From assembly GCA_964390935.1 (NCBI GenBank), contig CAYMKA010000002.1, positions 1 through 32,189 on the forward strand: DNA of 32,189 bases, read 5' to 3'. A program made the translations under genes and the position numbers. Shown in pieces: positions 2,854 through 24,280 of this stretch (position 1 is its first letter; each line of letters starts with the position of its first letter). The notes under the pieces are model-generated. The model did not search any database and had not been told where the DNA came from. It was given only the letters and a program-made list of their open reading frames with translations. The stretch is from an uncultured bacterium (GTDB taxonomy: Bacteria; Margulisbacteria; CAYMKA01).

Positions 2854-3561
2854 TTAAATACTTAAGAGTGTTCTCGTGTCGTCGTAATCTAAATCCACTT
2901 TGGGCACCAAACTTTGTACTGTGAGATTTTTATCTAAATAGGGAAATTCTTTTTGTTTGCCACGCATATAAATTTGCAGCGACACCGAAAAGTCTGAGTC
3001 ACTGGCAATTTGATTGAGGCGATGAATTGCATTAATTTCGGAAGTTAAAAAAGTAGCCTGCCCCTCATGAAAAATCATTTCTCCAAAAGGTTTGGGTTCT
3101 ATTTTTTTTCTTGATTGATCATGGGTCTCAAGTTGAGTAAAAAATTCTATTAAAATTTTTCCGTATAGAATTTTAATCACACCAACTGAACCGCCATGAG
3201 CATGAATAGGTGAACGGTGAGCCAGCGGCCAAATTTCAATTAAGGCGCCAACACTGGGGTGCGGCACAATCGCTTCCAGTCTTAAATAGTTAGAAGCCAA
3301 ATCGCGCTTCCCTTGAAATAAGTTTTGTTTAGCCAAAAGTCGATCTTTTAAAATACCATGGCTTAAACTTTCTCTAATGCGATGAATTGTGTGAAGTTCC
3401 AATGAAAAACTTTCTATCGTTTCCCTGACTTTTAAAGCCAAATCAACATCGCTGATTTCACGATCAATAATCTTTTCTTCTAAAGCATGTAAGTCGATCG
3501 TTAACTGCTCTAAAGAAAATATTTTTTTAATCGTCCCTGAAGTGGTTAAGATCGTCGTCAT
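2854..3561 (-). CDS. Cysteine-dioxygenase-type cupin (thiol dioxygenase-like) protein
   Basis: IWPLAHRSPIHAHGGSVGVIKILYGKILIE ... AIHRL ... SVSLQIY matches the CDO-family layout, in which an H-x-H plus a distal H act as metal ligands in a cupin barrel. The ATG at 3561 lies 4 nt after the stop of the upstream gene. The longer ORF running to 3600 would overlap that gene. Confidence 0.55.
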   Translation of the reverse strand: MTTILTTSGTIKKIFSLEQLTIDLHALEEKIIDREISDVDLALKVRETIESFSLELHTIHRIRESLSHGILKDRLLAKQNLFQGKRDLASNYLRLEAIVPHPSVGALIEIWPLAHRSPIHAHGGSVGVIKILYGKILIEFFTQLETHDQSRKKIEPKPFGEMIFHEGQATFLTSEINAIHRLNQIASDSDFSVSLQIYMRGKQKEFPYLDKNLTVQSLVPKVDLDYDDTRTLLSI

Positions 3562-3565
3562 AAAC

Positions 3566-4486
3566 TTAGCTGACAAATTCCACTGGCGCCTGCTTCGCAA
3601 TAAAACCCCTGTCTTCTGCTTCTTTTAAAAACAATTTGATACTTTCTTGGCCTTTCGCGCCTAAATCGAGAGTCCAATTGTTGACGTACATTCCTACAAA
3701 TTGATCAGCTAAAGATTTAGGCATATCACCTGCATAACGCATCGCGTAATCCAACGCTTCGCTACGATGATTGAGTGCATATTCAATAGAACGTTTCATA
3801 ATGCGTGAAACTTTTCCCACCATTTCTGAACCCAAGTTTTTACGAATAACATTAACCCCCAAGGGCAGAGGTAAATTATTTGTTTTTTTCCACCACCAGA
3901 CTCCTAAATTGGCAATTTGAGTTAGGCCCAAACTTTCGTGGGTAAGTTGCCCTTCATGAATCAAAAGGCCCACATCGACCGTGCCCTTCACCACTTCATC
4001 CATAATTTGGTTAAAAGGAATAATTTTGTAGTTGGTTAAAGGAAAAGGTAAAAACAGTTTCAAAGCCAAAAAAGCGGAGGTCATTTCACCAGGAATTCCA
4101 AATTTTAAATTTTTGATTTGATCATAAAAGGCCTGATTATTTTGATCTTTTCCATATTGATAGGAAGGAATTTGAAATTTGTCTTTCATCACGACCAAAC
4201 TTGGGCCATAACTTTCGCCACCCATTGAAGCTCCGTGGGTCAAAACAGAATAATGTTGTCTCACATGCGCATACGCATGCACCGAAATGGCTGTTGTCTC
4301 TAACTTAGCGTCTTTAGCCCATTCATTAAGAGTTTGGATGTCGTGGAGTTCGTGAGCAAATTCAATTCCTTCTAAATCGATCTTGCCATTAGTCGTCGCA
4401 TGAAACATAAAAGCGTCATCTGAGTCAGGGCTATGACCGATGCGAATTTTGGTAAGGGTGGTTTGATTGCTAGTTATATTCTTCAT
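3566..4486 (-). CDS. MqnA/MqnD-family protein (futalosine-route menaquinone biosynthesis family, periplasmic-binding-protein fold)
   Basis: The N-terminal IRIGHSPDSDDAFMFHA resembles the G-x-SPCPND-x-F-x-F motif of 1,4-dihydroxy-6-naphthoate synthase (MqnD) relatives. The 306-aa length fits the family. Confidence 0.6.
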   Translation of the reverse strand: MKNITSNQTTLTKIRIGHSPDSDDAFMFHATTNGKIDLEGIEFAHELHDIQTLNEWAKDAKLETTAISVHAYAHVRQHYSVLTHGASMGGESYGPSLVVMKDKFQIPSYQYGKDQNNQAFYDQIKNLKFGIPGEMTSAFLALKLFLPFPLTNYKIIPFNQIMDEVVKGTVDVGLLIHEGQLTHESLGLTQIANLGVWWWKKTNNLPLPLGVNVIRKNLGSEMVGKVSRIMKRSIEYALNHRSEALDYAMRYAGDMPKSLADQFVGMYVNNWTLDLGAKGQESIKLFLKEAEDRGFIAKQAPVEFVS

Positions 4487-4582
4487 GGGGAGAGTATTGT
4501 AACGGCTTTAAAAAAGATGTCCATTATTTTAGTCACTCCCATAAACAAATGTGCATTTTGAAAAAAAGTACTCTTAAAAAAT

Positions 4583-4598
4583 TGGCAATCAGATTGCA
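4583..4598 (+). promoter_or_regulatory. Candidate sigma-54 (-24/-12) promoter
   Basis: TGGCAAtcagaTTGCA compared with the consensus TGGCAC-N5-TTGCA, with exact GG-N10-GC spacing (GG 4584-4585, GC 4596-4597). It lies in the intergenic region just upstream of the ATG at 4614. rpoN is encoded in this window. Confidence 0.4.
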
Positions 4599-4613
4599 GA
4601 AGCAATCCATCGG

Positions 4614-4922
4614 ATGGAAACAATAGAAAAATGGAGCATGGCCAATGGGATTCACGAACTCAGTGACTGGACAATTATTACTAACCGCGGGCTTGATCCT
4701 GTGTATATTAATCTTGCAGCTCAAAGAGCACTAAATGTAAAAAGCGTCATTGATTGGAAAGAGTCCGAGCTGTTAGTCAAAATTATCGAAAACATCAAAA
4801 AAAGCACAACACATTATCAAAGCTTTAAAAATGGAGGTCGTGAATATTTTTCTTATTACGAGCTCATTATTGATAGAAATTTAAAAAACTATTTTCGAGT
4901 GGTCATTTCTCCTATTGCCTAA
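4614..4922 (+). CDS. Small hypothetical protein, possibly a stand-alone PAS-like domain
   Basis: 102-aa ORF. Its layout (GIHELSDWTIITNRGLDPVYINLAAQRALNV ... FKNGGREYFSYYELIIDRNLKNYFRVVISPI) resembles a PAS fold. There is no convincing SD, and the start is uncertain (alternative ATG at 4638). Confidence 0.4.
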   Translation: METIEKWSMANGIHELSDWTIITNRGLDPVYINLAAQRALNVKSVIDWKESELLVKIIENIKKSTTHYQSFKNGGREYFSYYELIIDRNLKNYFRVVISPIA

Positions 4923-5206
4923 TGATGCTTTTTAAAAATCAAAACCGAGTTTTTGCCCCCAAATCCGCTGCTATTCACCAAGGCATATTCGATTTCTTTT
5001 TTGCGAGCGACGTTGGGGATGTAATCCAAATCGCAATCCGGGTCGGGAAATTCATAATTAATGGTCGGTGGTAAAACCCCCTGCTCCAAGGCCATGAGAG
5101 CGGCCACCGACTGCATGGCTCCTGCTGGCCCTAAAGGATGGCCGATCATCGATTTAATCGAACTGCCTGGTACTTGATAGGCTGCACTGCCAAAAGCTTT
5201 TTTAAG
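4919..5206 (-). pseudogene. Beta-ketoacyl-ACP synthase (FabF/FabB-like) C-terminal fragment of about 95 aa; the N-terminal three quarters are missing
   Basis: The frame reads LKKAFGSAAYQVPGSSIKSMIGHPLGPAGAMQSVAALMALEQGVLPPTINYEFPDPDCDLDYIPNVARKKEIEYALVNSSGFGGKNSVLIFKKHH. This is collinear with the FabF C-terminus (..FG...VSSTKSMTGHLLGAAG...NSFGFGGTNGSLIFKK). An in-frame TGA sits upstream at 5222-5224. The active-site Cys region is absent. The annotated ORF 4919-5149 is only the ATG-initiated tail. Confidence 0.8.
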
Positions 5207-5394
5207 ATATCGAGACCATCTTCATTGGGAAAATTCAAATCTAAAAAAATTAAATCTATTTCTTGTTGTTTAAGTAAAGCAAAAGCTTCGTCGCTGTTTT
5301 GAGCTTCAAAAAAGGGATATTGATCTTTAAAAATATAAAACAGCGATTTACGGACTGACACATCGTCATCGATCGACAAAATAGAGTAAGCCAT
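5146..5394 (-). pseudogene. Truncated response-regulator receiver (REC) domain, N-terminal half only
   Basis: MAYSILSIDDDVSVRKSLF...DLIFLDLNFPNEDGLDILKKL contains the acidic pocket DDD and the phospho-acceptor Asp context (LDLNFP..DGL). It lacks beta4/beta5 (conserved T/S and K). After LKKL it runs into 14 unrelated codons, and its stop overlaps the ATG of the KAS fragment (ATGA). Confidence 0.65.
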
Positions 5395-5454
5395 GAATTG
5401 AGTATAAAAGTGCACTGTCCTTTGTGCAAATTATAATCAGATACTTTAAAAACT

Positions 5455-5470
5455 TGGCAAAAAAAATGCA
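5455..5470 (+). promoter_or_regulatory. Weak candidate sigma-54 (-24/-12) promoter
   Basis: TGGCAAaaaaaATGCA has GG-N10-GC spacing (GG 5456-5457, GC 5468-5469). It lies about 105 nt upstream of the ankyrin gene ATG. The spacer is an A-run, so a chance match is quite possible. Confidence 0.25.
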
Positions 5471-5575
5471 TTTTTAGGTCCTCTGAAACTAAAAAAAATA
5501 ATTGCGATCAATGAGCCGTCACCGTTAGGCTTCTTTTCTACAAAAGATGTTGAAAATTTCACCATCGCGGCTTGG

Positions 5576-5938
5576 ATGAATAATTTACAAATCGTTTCCG
5601 ACTATCTGACTAGTGGCATCAATGTAAATGTCCAAAATGAGTTCGGCAATACTGCTATTCTGCTCGCTTCCTGTAATGGTAATTTTCAAATAGTGAAACA
5701 CTTATTTAAACATCGAGCCAATTTAAATCTTGCCAATAAACAAGGAGATACAGCTCTGATTTGGGCAGCAGACAAAGGACATAAGGAAATTGTTAAATTT
5801 CTCATCTTACATGGAGCAGATTTGCAAGCCGTCAATCAGATTGGTCGTTCGGCACTATTTTGGGCAGAACAAAACGGTCATGAAGAAGTCATCCAGATTA
5901 TTCGTGACGCTCAAAAAACTTTGTTTCTTATTGCCTGA
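5576..5938 (+). CDS. Ankyrin-repeat protein (about 3 repeats, 120 aa)
   Basis: Repeated G-TAL..AA..GH.EIVK.L...GA-type units: GNTAILLASCNGNFQIVKHLFKHRANLN, GDTALIWAADKGHKEIVKFLILHGADLQ and GRSALFWAEQNGHEEVIQII. Confidence 0.85.
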   Translation: MNNLQIVSDYLTSGINVNVQNEFGNTAILLASCNGNFQIVKHLFKHRANLNLANKQGDTALIWAADKGHKEIVKFLILHGADLQAVNQIGRSALFWAEQNGHEEVIQIIRDAQKTLFLIA

Positions 5939-5997
5939 GATTGTTTTTTTAGAATCAATTTCTGCGTTAAGAAACAGCGCGTTAAAATGTTTTAACA

Positions 5998-18695: not shown

Positions 18696-18740
18696 GAAAA
18701 AAGAATATGCAAAATTAATGCCAAACTCGATAATCAGCCG

Positions 18741-21954: not shown

Positions 21955-23325
21955 ATGAAAATTAATTTACAAATGCAGCCGCGGCTGACGCTCTCGCAAA
22001 CGCTGACGCAAATTTTATCTCCCAAAACTTTGCAGCTGCTCAAAACAATTAATTTACCTTACCAAGAGCTGCTTGAAAAAATTGATCAAGAAAAAAATGA
22101 AAACCCGGTTCTTGAAGTCACTAAAAATGATGAATTAATGGAGTATGCCAAAGCGCTGAGTGCAACGATGCCGCTCTCTGGCAAAAAAGAATATAACCCT
22201 GATGATCCGTTAATGGATTTTCGCAGCAGCGAGATGACTCTTTTTGAACATTTGATGTCGCAATTACGTTTAGTGAATTTAAGTCCGCTAGAATATGAGA
22301 TCGGTGAGAAATTATTAGAAGCCATAGACGACCGTGGTTTTATTATTGGCTATCCCGAACTCAGACAAGAACTGATGGACAAACATCAAGTCAAAAGAAC
22401 TTACATTGATGCCTTACTTGAAATCATTCAAAGCTTTGAGCCGGACGGAGTCGGTGCCCGCAACGTTAAAGAATGTCTGATCATTCAAATTAATGAGTAT
22501 AACTTTGACAGTAAAGAACTTCAGGATGTGATCTACAAGGCCGTTAAATATCATTTTGAAGATTTAACGAAGAAAAAATTTGAACCTATTGCACAAGAAC
22601 TAGGAATTCCTGTCGAAGGCGTACAGCGCATTGCTGATTTTATTGAAAAAAATCTAAATCCTAATCCAGGCTCTGCTTTCACACGCAGCCATAGTCCTGA
22701 AATTGTAATTCCCTCATTTACTGTTTTTAAAACTGAGTCCGGACAATATAAAGGTATTAATCTGGAAGAAAAAAAGGGACCGCAACTCCGTATTAATGAG
22801 CAATATTTAAAAATGTTGGACGATCCCGGCGTGGATGCTGAAACCAAAAATTATGTTAAACAAAAACTAGAGGCGGCTAAAGATTTAATTTATAACCTGG
22901 AGCGTCGTATTGAGACAATTAATAAAATTTTAAACACGATTGTGGAGACTCAACAGGAATTTTTTGAACTGGGTTCTTTTTGGTTAAAACCCCTGCAACA
23001 AAGCACCTTGTCTGAAATGGTCGGGATTCATCCTTCGACGATTAGCAGAACTTGTTCGAGTAAATATATTCAAACCCCCAAAGGATTTTTTCCGCTCAAA
23101 TATTTATGTCCGCGCAATGTGCACGGTTATTCGCCTTACCAACTTAAAGCGATTATTAAAAGAATGGTCACAGAACACAAAGATTTGTCAGACCAAAAAT
23201 TAGCCAATTTGTTAGCAGAACGGGGCATTAATATAAAACGCAGAACCGTCACCAAATATCGCCACGAAGTCGGCGAAAAAAGTTCGTTCGAGAGAAAAAA
23301 GAATCCTAACCCAGCTTCAAACTAG
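21955..23325 (+). CDS. rpoN: RNA polymerase sigma-54 factor
   Basis: Gln/Leu-rich region I (MQPRLTLSQTLTQILSPKTLQLLKTINLPYQEL), an HTH (STLSEMVGIHPSTISR) and an RpoN box (RRTVTKYR). Confidence 0.93.
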   Translation: MKINLQMQPRLTLSQTLTQILSPKTLQLLKTINLPYQELLEKIDQEKNENPVLEVTKNDELMEYAKALSATMPLSGKKEYNPDDPLMDFRSSEMTLFEHLMSQLRLVNLSPLEYEIGEKLLEAIDDRGFIIGYPELRQELMDKHQVKRTYIDALLEIIQSFEPDGVGARNVKECLIIQINEYNFDSKELQDVIYKAVKYHFEDLTKKKFEPIAQELGIPVEGVQRIADFIEKNLNPNPGSAFTRSHSPEIVIPSFTVFKTESGQYKGINLEEKKGPQLRINEQYLKMLDDPGVDAETKNYVKQKLEAAKDLIYNLERRIETINKILNTIVETQQEFFELGSFWLKPLQQSTLSEMVGIHPSTISRTCSSKYIQTPKGFFPLKYLCPRNVHGYSPYQLKAIIKRMVTEHKDLSDQKLANLLAERGINIKRRTVTKYRHEVGEKSSFERKKNPNPASN

Positions 23326-24280
23326 GTTGAGCTGAAAAATCTAAGGGCGAAAAGTTTTTTTCATCTTTAGATTTGTAATAGGCCGCCACTCCAATCATTG
23401 ATGCGTTATCAGTGCAGTATTTCATGGGCGGAACATACACTTCGATATTATTTTGTTTAGCACGAGTGGTTAATTCAGTTCGCAAATACTGATTGGCCGA
23501 AACGCCACCTGCCACAAACAAATATTTTACCTTGCTTGTTAAGCAAGCTTCGATGGCTTTGTTTATCACTTGATCAAAAGCTGCTTTTTGAAACGAAGCC
23601 GCGATATCTGCCTTAGAAATTCCTGGATCTTTTTTAATCATCTGCAAAACAGCTGTTTTTAATCCCGAATAAGAGAAGTCAAATTGAGGCATTTGCACTT
23701 TAGGAAAATTTATTTTTTGAGAATCTCCGTTTTGAGCCAGTTTTTCAATCGCCGGTCCTCCCGGATAACCAAGGCCCAACATTCGCGCGGCTTTATCAAA
23801 TGCTTCTCCCACGGCATCATCTTTTGTTTTACCAATGAGTTCGTACTGGCTATGACCTTTCATTAAATAAAGATGGGTATGGCCTCCTGAAACAATTAAA
23901 ACCATCGCCGGAAATACAGGATCCTTTTCAATAAAGTTTGAATAAATATGGCCCTCCAAATGATTTACTTTAATGAGCGGCTTTTGCAACAAAAATGCCA
24001 GCGACTTGGCCATCATCTGTCCCAGCATGAGGCTGCCATGAAGACCCGGCCCTTCAGTCACCGCGATCGCATCAATTTGTTTCTCTTTTAGTGACATTTT
24101 TTGGAGTATCAACGGCAGCCACACTTCGTGGACACGGGCAGCAACCTCAGGCACCACCCCGCCATAAAGTTCATGCTCTTTAATTTGAGTCGAAGTAAAA
24201 GTTTCCACTATTTCTTTGCCGTTTTTAACCAGCGCAAGAGAAGTGTCATCACAAGAGGTTTCAATGGCCAAAATAAGCAT
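23306..24280 (-). CDS. tsaD: tRNA N6-adenosine threonylcarbamoyltransferase
   Basis: ILAIETSCDDTS, HLEGHI, VSGGHT and GGVSAN are Kae1/TsaD family motifs. The 3' end overlaps the rpoN 3' end by 20 nt (convergent). Confidence 0.92.
   Translation of the reverse strand: MLILAIETSCDDTSLALVKNGKEIVETFTSTQIKEHELYGGVVPEVAARVHEVWLPLILQKMSLKEKQIDAIAVTEGPGLHGSLMLGQMMAKSLAFLLQKPLIKVNHLEGHIYSNFIEKDPVFPAMVLIVSGGHTHLYLMKGHSQYELIGKTKDDAVGEAFDKAARMLGLGYPGGPAIEKLAQNGDSQKINFPKVQMPQFDFSYSGLKTAVLQMIKKDPGISKADIAASFQKAAFDQVINKAIEACLTSKVKYLFVAGGVSANQYLRTELTTRAKQNNIEVYVPPMKYCTDNASMIGVAAYYKSKDEKNFSPLDFSAQPSLKLG

Follow-up and report, generated by a model that had tools for sequence, protein, structure and literature searches.

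Deletions between short direct repeats are known in bacteria and arise by RecA-independent illegitimate recombination or replication slippage, and the classical lacI deletion spectra of Escherichia coli are reportedly an example of them. Here, we describe a locus of this appearance in a 32,189-nucleotide stretch of an uncultured margulisbacterium (contig CAYMKA010000002.1 of GenBank assembly GCA_964390935.1; this whole stretch is called the window below), where half of a response-regulator receiver domain is fused, out of frame, to the C-terminal end of a FabF-like ketoacyl synthase (KAS). Positions 4919-5394 are, with high confidence, a scar left when a single deletion took about 8.6 kb, the core of an accessory biosynthetic gene cluster. 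By analogy, the event would be of a textbook kind, i.e., loss of DNA between short direct repeats with fusion of the gene remnants: the locus shares with the E. coli cases a 9-bp repeat (16 of 17 bases when extended), the retention of one copy, the lack of filler DNA and a size of several kb. In contrast, the repeats lie about 8.6 kb apart, more than slippage within a single replication fork usually spans, so that strand annealing after a break is an equally possible route.

The two fused genes and their lost neighbours also have described counterparts. As in NtrC-family sigma-54 regulators, the intact regulator orthologue in relatives combines REC, AAA+ Sigma54_activat and HTH_8 domains, and the window still encodes sigma-54 (21955-23325), whereas the window itself retains only receiver residues 1-66, a pseudogene fragment and no functional member of the family. 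The intact KAS resembles FabF and the ketosynthase (KS)-alpha subunit of type II polyketide synthases (PKSs) in its thiolase fold and Cys-His-His triad, and in having cyclase and SRPBCC genes as neighbours; its partner protein resembles the chain-length factor (CLF) of the latter in carrying Glu for the active-site Cys. However, the KAS scores below the FabF equivalog cut-off, no acyl carrier protein (ACP) gene was seen in the cluster on the relatives' contigs L170 and L193, and the partner is without most of the KS C-terminal domain. Finally, the site recalls accessory clusters of flexible genomic islands in its presence or absence at strain level, with four states at one site. Unlike classical mobile islands, which it therefore does not resemble, it has no flanking integrase, tRNA gene or insertion sequence (IS) element in the window, where Rfam and tRNA scans found nothing.

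Results

Two gene fragments in different reading frames

All coordinates are window positions, and contigs of relatives are given as L-numbers. On the minus strand, positions 5394-5197 encode residues 1-66 of a response-regulator receiver domain (MAYSILSIDDD...DGLDILKK), which matches Pfam Response_reg (PF00072) with E = 2.4e-12, at profile positions 1-67 of 111 only. The open reading frame (ORF) starting at ATG 5394 reads MAYSILSIDDDVSVRKSLFYIFKDQYPFFEAQNSDEAFALLKQQEIDLIFLDLNFPNEDGLDILKK, and an in-frame GTG upstream at 5415 gives the 89-aa version reported by gene callers. After K66, this ORF continues into 16 out-of-frame codons, LLAVQPIKYQAVRLNR, and stops at TGA 5148-5146, giving 82 codons in total. 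A second frame, one base off (-1), reads (L)KKAFGSAAYQVPGSSIKSMIGHPLG...GFGGKNSVLIFKKHH* at 5196-4919 (minus strand; stop at 4921-4919), also written as (L)KKAFGSAAYQVPGSSIKSMIGHPLGPAG...GFGGKNSVLIFKKHH. It represents the last 94 residues of a FabF-like KAS and matches Pfam Ketoacyl-synt_C with E = 4.2e-12, at profile positions 66-119 of 119 only; counting the two lysine codons at 5203-5198, which belong to the shared repeat, the remnant covers residues 314-407 plus the stop. An earlier note, made from the window alone, had described a receiver half followed by a KAS tail in a frame offset by 1 nt; translation reproduces both frames exactly, and the Pfam check on both frames bears out that either half is truncated. 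The overlapping ATGA, by which the TGA of the regulator ORF shares bases with the ATG of a 76-aa KAS-tail ORF, is likewise present at 5149-5146.

The receiver remnant extends from beta1 into the beginning of alpha3, with D9-D11 as its acidic residues and D52 as phospho-acceptor, and shares 85% amino-acid identity with the intact 461-aa NtrC-type protein of L187. Missing are beta4 and beta5, where the intact orthologue has T80 and K102, as well as HTH_8 and the sigma-54 AAA+ domain. The fragment is hence no complete PF00072 receiver, the equivalents of T80 and K102 being deleted, nor is the window ORF an NtrC-family protein, as the three-domain 461-aa protein occurs only in relatives (L187, L188). 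Tested against the KAS II/FabF models (TIGR03150, NF005589), the KAS fragment does not qualify either: Cys158 and His298 are gone and only His335 is kept. A search of the window for a full-length copy or paralogue of the regulator or the KAS found none.

Both leftover ORFs are pseudogene fragments and, as we infer, give no working product, since the half receiver is without beta4 and beta5, the gene of its cognate kinase is gone, and the KAS tail lacks Cys158 and His298. This agrees with the earlier proposal that neither half is functional alone. The 76-aa ORF we read as a by-product of the scar and not as a gene; nothing suggests a genuine gene.

Intact parent genes in relatives

Cluster look-ups on neighbouring genes led to a population 98-99% identical in DNA to the window (strain A). 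Also compared were two relatives of about 80% identity each, namely relative B (L187/L188, L180, L193) and relative C (L181/L184, L182/L185, L183), and lineage D (L001; 83-85% identical). As the earlier note had suggested, comparison with such close relatives recovered both full-length parents, a regulator of 461 aa (L187/L188) and a KAS of 407 aa (L169/L170).

On the left side of strain A, L186 (JGI 3300028898) matches the window up to the junction at 98.2% identity over 10.2 kb, spanning PMT_2 glycosyltransferases, glycerol kinase, ribonucleotide reductase (RNR) alpha/beta, a 194-aa gene, the ankyrin gene and the regulator. Past the junction, the L186 regulator goes on (DILKKILALN...) through ...DGLDILKKILALNLE-TAG-EVVMLTANSDLGKAVECIRTGAVDFLVKP... 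into the sigma-54 AAA+ domain and runs for 187 further codons until the contig ends at codon 253. The in-frame TAG lies at codon 74 (L186:10220-10222), where relative B has Gln (…LNLE*EVVMLTAN…); it was seen in a single contig from one sample, and the regulator may thus already have been inactivated in the strain A lineage. In relative B, the intact protein is an NtrC-type sigma-54 activator with REC, Sigma54_activat and HTH_8 domains (461 aa; L187/L188). On the right side of strain A, L169 and L170 agree with the window to 98.7-98.8% from MqnA via the 102-aa ORF and the KAS tail to position 5205, beyond which they carry the full 407-aa KAS, with Cys158, His298 and His335 present, and the cluster. 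Such agreement of the two fragments with full-length genes goes far beyond chance.

The remnants differ little from strain A. Both of the 2 differences in the 198 nt of the receiver are synonymous, leaving the protein identical, and 12 of 287 nt differ in the KAS remnant, with 2 amino-acid changes. At both of these residues the window agrees with lineage D (L001), and the changes most likely arose in strain A. No change in the remnant proteins is private to the window, which bears on the recency of the event. A protein search with the receiver half returned only the scar ORF itself and one fragment of relative B. Among the matches listed, a scan of genome contigs with the MqnA-like neighbour, which matched at a conserved motif, gave only relatives of up to 54% identity, and a metagenome-contig scan with the KAS fragment gave 62% at best.

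Frameshifts split genes in the JGI contigs L002 (966-980, 1446-1458) and L001 (370-389), all in A-runs. Pseudogenisation was considered for those in L002 and rejected, as L187/L188 (99.9% identical) have an intact 461-aa regulator. These frameshifts are most likely homopolymer miscalls, a view that for L001 follows from the A-run position only.

The junction and its repeat

Three-way alignment of the window with both parents resolves the fusion to the base. The strain A regulator (L186) reads ...GGTCTCGATATC TTAAAAAAG A TTTTGGC TTTAAAT..., the strain A KAS (L170) reads ...ACCAATGCAG TTAAAAAAG C TTTTGGC AGTGCAGCC..., and the window reads ...GGTCTCGATATC TTAAAAAAG C TTTTGGC AGTGCAGCC.... Both parents thus carry a perfect 9-bp copy of TTAAAAAAG, extending to 16 matching bases out of 17 over TTAAAAAAG[A/C]TTTTGGC. 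One copy lies at 10190-10198 of L186 and falls in regulator codons 64-66, the other lies in KAS codons 313-316 on L170, and the window keeps a single copy at 5205-5197. Homology to the strain A regulator ends at 5197 and that to the strain A KAS begins at 5205 (BLAST), without filler DNA at the junction. Base 5206 (C) is of the regulator type and base 5196 (C) of the KAS type, so the parent switches across the repeat and the crossover took place within its 9 bases. The same short sequence at both end points, of which one copy is kept without insert, is what a microhomology deletion leaves, and the earlier note's proposal that such an event removed the 3' part of the regulator and the 5' part of the KAS stands.

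One element of that proposal fails, namely that both parents would natively encode L-K-K at this site. The repeat reads I-L-K-K-I in the regulator and, one base out of phase, A-V-K-K-A (A-V-K-K-A-F-G) in the KAS, so that the parents share a nucleotide repeat in two frames and not a peptide. Since the repeat sits in different codon phases of the two genes, the fusion is out of frame. The "L-K-K" seen in both frames results from this one-base offset, the KAS being natively V-K-K: the hybrid L codon consists of the last base (C) of the regulator ATC and the first two bases (TT) of the kept repeat.

Identical junctions were found in at least eight metagenome assemblies (L003-L008, L176, L178). On L003-L008, the 89-aa ORF recurs exactly and is immediately followed by the 76-aa ORF, and L176 and L178 were reached via the ankyrin neighbour. 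All eight scar contigs agree with the window to 99.95-100% across the junction and are collinear with it for up to several kb per side. As they come from different ENA and Logan samples and from two assemblers, MEGAHIT (k141) and SPAdes (NODE), a chimeric assembly, a possibility raised in the earlier note, is excluded. The note had also held that a single-base error elsewhere might undo the finding; about 8.6 kb are missing, however, and no one-base correction restores the genes.

The lost cluster

The order of the missing genes is the same in strain A (L170, L179) and in relative B (L187/L188, L180, L193), and the eight genes are listed in Table 1. The expectation that anything between regulator and KAS had been lost is borne out and can be specified as six further genes in the relatives. 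In relative B, the overlap of contigs L187, L180 and L193 gives a distance of about 8,630 bp between the sites of the repeat, and at least 6.3 kb of the missing DNA are directly visible in strain A. The loss hence amounts to about 8.6 kb, a figure taken from relative B at about 80% identity, from which we infer the size in the immediate ancestor.

The description of the KAS as FabF-type holds in part. It is FabF-like, with B. subtilis FabF (4ls5, E = 3.5e-96) as the closest solved structure next to the actinorhodin KS (1tqy, 8e-84), and it passes the cut-off of the NCBIfam KAS II subfamily NF005589 (397 vs. 387 bits). The intact protein (L170) nevertheless stays below that of the FabF equivalog TIGR03150 (406.4 vs. 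493.75 bits), and it is encoded in an accessory cluster with a KS-beta-like partner. It closes this cluster and is probably not the housekeeping FabF. In the partner (L170:3566-4897, minus strand; L193:2951-4258), a SRPBCC-like N-terminal region of about 140 aa is fused to a KS N-domain with Glu at the active-site Cys position, while most of the KS C-terminal domain is gone; JGI annotates this protein as "RatA toxin". Of the features of type II PKSs, the relatives have the Cys-His-His KS, the Glu-for-Cys partner and the SRPBCC and PF04199 cyclase genes; an ACP gene was not seen on L170 or L193, and the partner is shorter than CLFs. With its Cys-less partner and genes of cyclase type, the cluster resembles a small pathway for polyketides or fatty-acid derivatives and not housekeeping synthesis. 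Its G+C content is 35.7%, similar to the 38.3% of the genome. Upstream of the cyclase in L170, a sigma-54 promoter search gave only a match with 2 mismatches, which is not significant.

Several contigs show discordant joins within the cluster. L179 extends L170 by 307 bp and disagrees with it at the other end, and may be chimeric; at L179:1109-4062, a join at L170 position 7274 puts Wzy_C and radical-SAM genes next to the kinase. In L194:1-258 a different gene lies upstream of the cyclase, and the first 100 nt of L180 (1-100) are unlike L187. These joins are either further structural variants or chimeric contig ends.

Table 1. Features of the scar and its surroundings in the window, and genes of the intact cluster as found in the relatives (in cluster order).
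Feature	Position	Strand	Length	Evidence or remarks
NtrC-type regulator remnant, codons 1-66	5197..5394	-		Pfam half-domain; 196/198 nt identical to L186, protein identical
Deletion junction, single copy of the 9-bp direct repeat TTAAAAAAG	5197..5205	-		Three-way alignment, BLAST breakpoints
16 out-of-frame codons LLAVQPIKYQAVRLNR + TGA, ending the regulator ORF inside KAS-derived DNA	5146..5196	-		Translations
FabF-like KAS remnant	4919..5196	-		Ketoacyl-synt_C; 275/287 nt identical to intact 407-aa gene of L170 (repeat to stop)
ORF called by gene callers	4919..5149	-	76 aa	Starts at internal KAS Met (KSMIGH); clusters with full-length-KAS fragments
Intact ORF, convergent with KAS, stops overlapping by a few bases	4614..4922	+	102 aa	No family match
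Sigma-54-promoter-like TGGCAATCAGATTGCA	4583..4598	+		1 mismatch to pattern; 15 nt upstream of 102-aa ORF ATG
Ankyrin-repeat gene, divergent from regulator, left-hand gene of island	5576..5938	+		Pfam Ank families
Remnant of variable genomic island, between 194-aa gene and MqnA-like gene	4502..5982			Absent in relative C
Cluster gene 1, NtrC-type regulator			461 aa	REC, Sigma54_activat, HTH_8
Cluster gene 2, Methyltransf_2 O-methyltransferase			349 aa	
Cluster gene 3, sensor histidine kinase				HisKA + HATPase_c; 7TM N-terminus in relative B
Cluster gene 4, PF04199 cyclase			310-311 aa	
Cluster gene 5, SRPBCC (Polyketide_cyc) protein				
Cluster gene 6, ICMT/PEMT-like methyltransferase				
Cluster gene 7, KS-beta-like partner			435-443 aa	SRPBCC-like N-terminus + KS N-domain, Glu at Cys position
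Cluster gene 8, KAS, last cluster gene			407 aa	Cys158, His298, His335

The surrounding island

The site exists in four states: intact (relative B; in strain A the cluster genes lie on separate contigs), with the cluster intact but a TAG in the regulator (strain A), with the core deleted (window) and absent (relative C). In relative C (366-kb contig L181/L184, plus L182/L185 and L183), the whole interval 4502-5982 is missing, and 26 bp separate MqnA from the 217-aa gene that is homologous to the 194-aa one (L181:9975-10000).

The 102-aa ORF is the right-hand neighbour of the cluster; its strain A copy differs by 1 aa, and in lineage D (L001) a 167-aa CheY-like gene takes its place. The sigma-54-promoter-like site TGGCAATCAGATTGCA in front of it also occurs in L170 of strain A. 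With 1 mismatch allowed, the window contains 4 matches to the sigma-54 pattern vs. 1.1 expected, the other three (2569-2584, 18708-18723, 23985-24000) all being on the minus strand. Judged from its pattern and place, TGGCAATCAGATTGCA may be a promoter left without its activator, in which case, if it is real, the 102-aa gene would have lost its presumed activator. A scan for sigma-70 promoters and terminators gave numbers no higher than background.

On the left, the ankyrin gene adjoins the regulator in strain A (L186) and relative B (L187). Its length varies, with 120 aa in the window, 151 aa in strain A (L186:9457-9912) and 115 aa in relative B. Farther to the right, at 2854-3600 and 3566-4486 (both minus strand), a MqnA/MqnD-type gene of the futalosine pathway overlaps a 248-aa ORF by 35 nt; the latter has a weak cupin/cysteine-dioxygenase-like match, and the pair is conserved in strain A and relative C.

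Discussion

The comparison with strain A and relative B suggests how the scar most probably formed. In the window's minus-strand orientation, the ancestor would have carried a divergent ankyrin gene followed by the NtrC-type activator, O-methyltransferase, histidine kinase, PF04199 cyclase, SRPBCC protein, ICMT-like methyltransferase, SRPBCC/KS-beta-like protein and FabF-like KAS, with the 102-aa ORF, which is convergent, and the MqnA-like gene at the end. Short homology between both copies of TTAAAAAAG would then have allowed the intervening DNA to be lost with one copy kept, likely by replication slippage or other RecA-independent illegitimate recombination. The promoter and start codon of the regulator could still give an 82-aa peptide of 66 receiver and 16 nonsense residues, and the KAS tail would be read from its internal Met only, if at all.

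Some points weigh against a single, short-homology deletion. The 9-mers common to regulator and KAS are not rare (13 pairs in 761 x 1233 nt), and the 9-bp repeat is thus unexceptional, fitting a short-homology mechanism without proving it. Besides, no single strain A contig bridges regulator codon 253 to the kinase (L186 vs. L179/L170), the 142 nt upstream of the kinase in L179 are unlike relative B, and the loss could have proceeded in more than one step with the last junction alone visible. Such a stepwise course, e.g., inactivation of the regulator followed by successive deletions, is in our view unlikely. The TAG at codon 74 in strain A suggests that the cluster was already decaying in the species, and the variants within the kinase (L179) and upstream of the cyclase (L194) would add further structural changes. 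The stop codon rests, however, on one contig from one sample, and both flanks match the intact parents up to the shared repeat without filler, for which one event is enough. An assembly artefact, with two unrelated loci brought together at an A-run of low complexity, is extremely improbable and already largely refuted. The junction site is indeed rich in homopolymers and low in complexity, and contig ends of relatives do show faults: the 55 nt that close L187 correspond, in reverse complement, to the beginning of L193, L179 and L170 disagree, and L178 ends 7-14 nt past the junction. Against this stand the recurrence of one junction in at least eight assemblies by two assemblers, with several kb of collinear flank on both sides, and the collinearity of both flanks with the RNR...MqnA neighbourhood of strain A and relatives B and C. 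There is next to no probability that the window shows the ancestral state and the relatives gained the cluster by insertion at this site. Relative C, where the 217-aa gene and MqnA are 26 bp apart without the island, leaves gain or loss of the island open at deeper nodes, but no insertion could make two complete, conserved genes out of truncated half-domains that lie in different frames. The fragments are, moreover, 96-99% identical to the matching parts of the full-length genes, and the G+C content of the cluster is like that of the genome. For the scar itself, insertion is already refuted by the truncated domains.

It remains to be considered whether the scar makes a functional product, either a small protein with a truncated receiver or a receiver-KAS chimera formed by -1 ribosomal frameshifting, which we regard as very improbable. 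At the junction (5197-5203, minus strand), the regulator frame reads TT-A-AAA-AAG and so contains, in phase, the dnaX-type slippery heptamer A_AAA_AAG, with the KAS frame as its -1 frame. This heptamer is efficient in E. coli dnaX. Here, the -1 frame stays open for 94 codons to the native KAS stop, and the promoter region, the start codon and the first 66 codons are intact and unchanged compared to strain A. However, strain A already has this heptamer in its intact regulator, and it was not born with the fusion. No stimulatory RNA structure was found downstream, where 87 nt fold no better than shuffles (z = 0.06). Of the hallmarks of dnaX-type frameshifting, the slippery heptamer in phase is present, whereas downstream structure and conservation of the product are absent. 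The cognate kinase was deleted as well, and neither half of a (beta-alpha)5 receiver nor the final 23% of an enzyme with thiolase fold is a folding unit. In scar contigs from other samples, the 82-aa ORF has a missense change (N54T) and a stop loss (TGA to TGG), which looks like drift, though such changes are very few. A slim chance is left for a broader view in which the scar is not inert, be it through slippage of a few percent to a chimera of about 160 aa or through persistence of the 82-aa receiver, and in which, separately, the lost cluster is an undescribed polyketide-like pathway. Judging from the reading frames, low-level slippage could give a 66+94-aa chimera, whose -1 frame peptide would span ...DILKKAFGSAAY.... 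The pathway could be made up of a KS, a SRPBCC-fused KS partner with Cys-to-Glu exchange, two cyclase-type proteins and two methyltransferases, and could stand under two-component and sigma-54 control, seen from intact to absent in an uncultured lineage.

With a single deletion as the most probable origin, the locus represents the loss of an accessory cluster resolved to the base, with the end points in both parents, the 9-bp repeat and the product all seen in natural populations. This makes it an unusually complete case, although it does not change what is known of deletion mechanisms or of either protein family. In annotations, the ORFs called at this site as an 89/82-aa "response regulator" and a 76-aa "ketoacyl synthase" merit a flag as pseudogene fragments.

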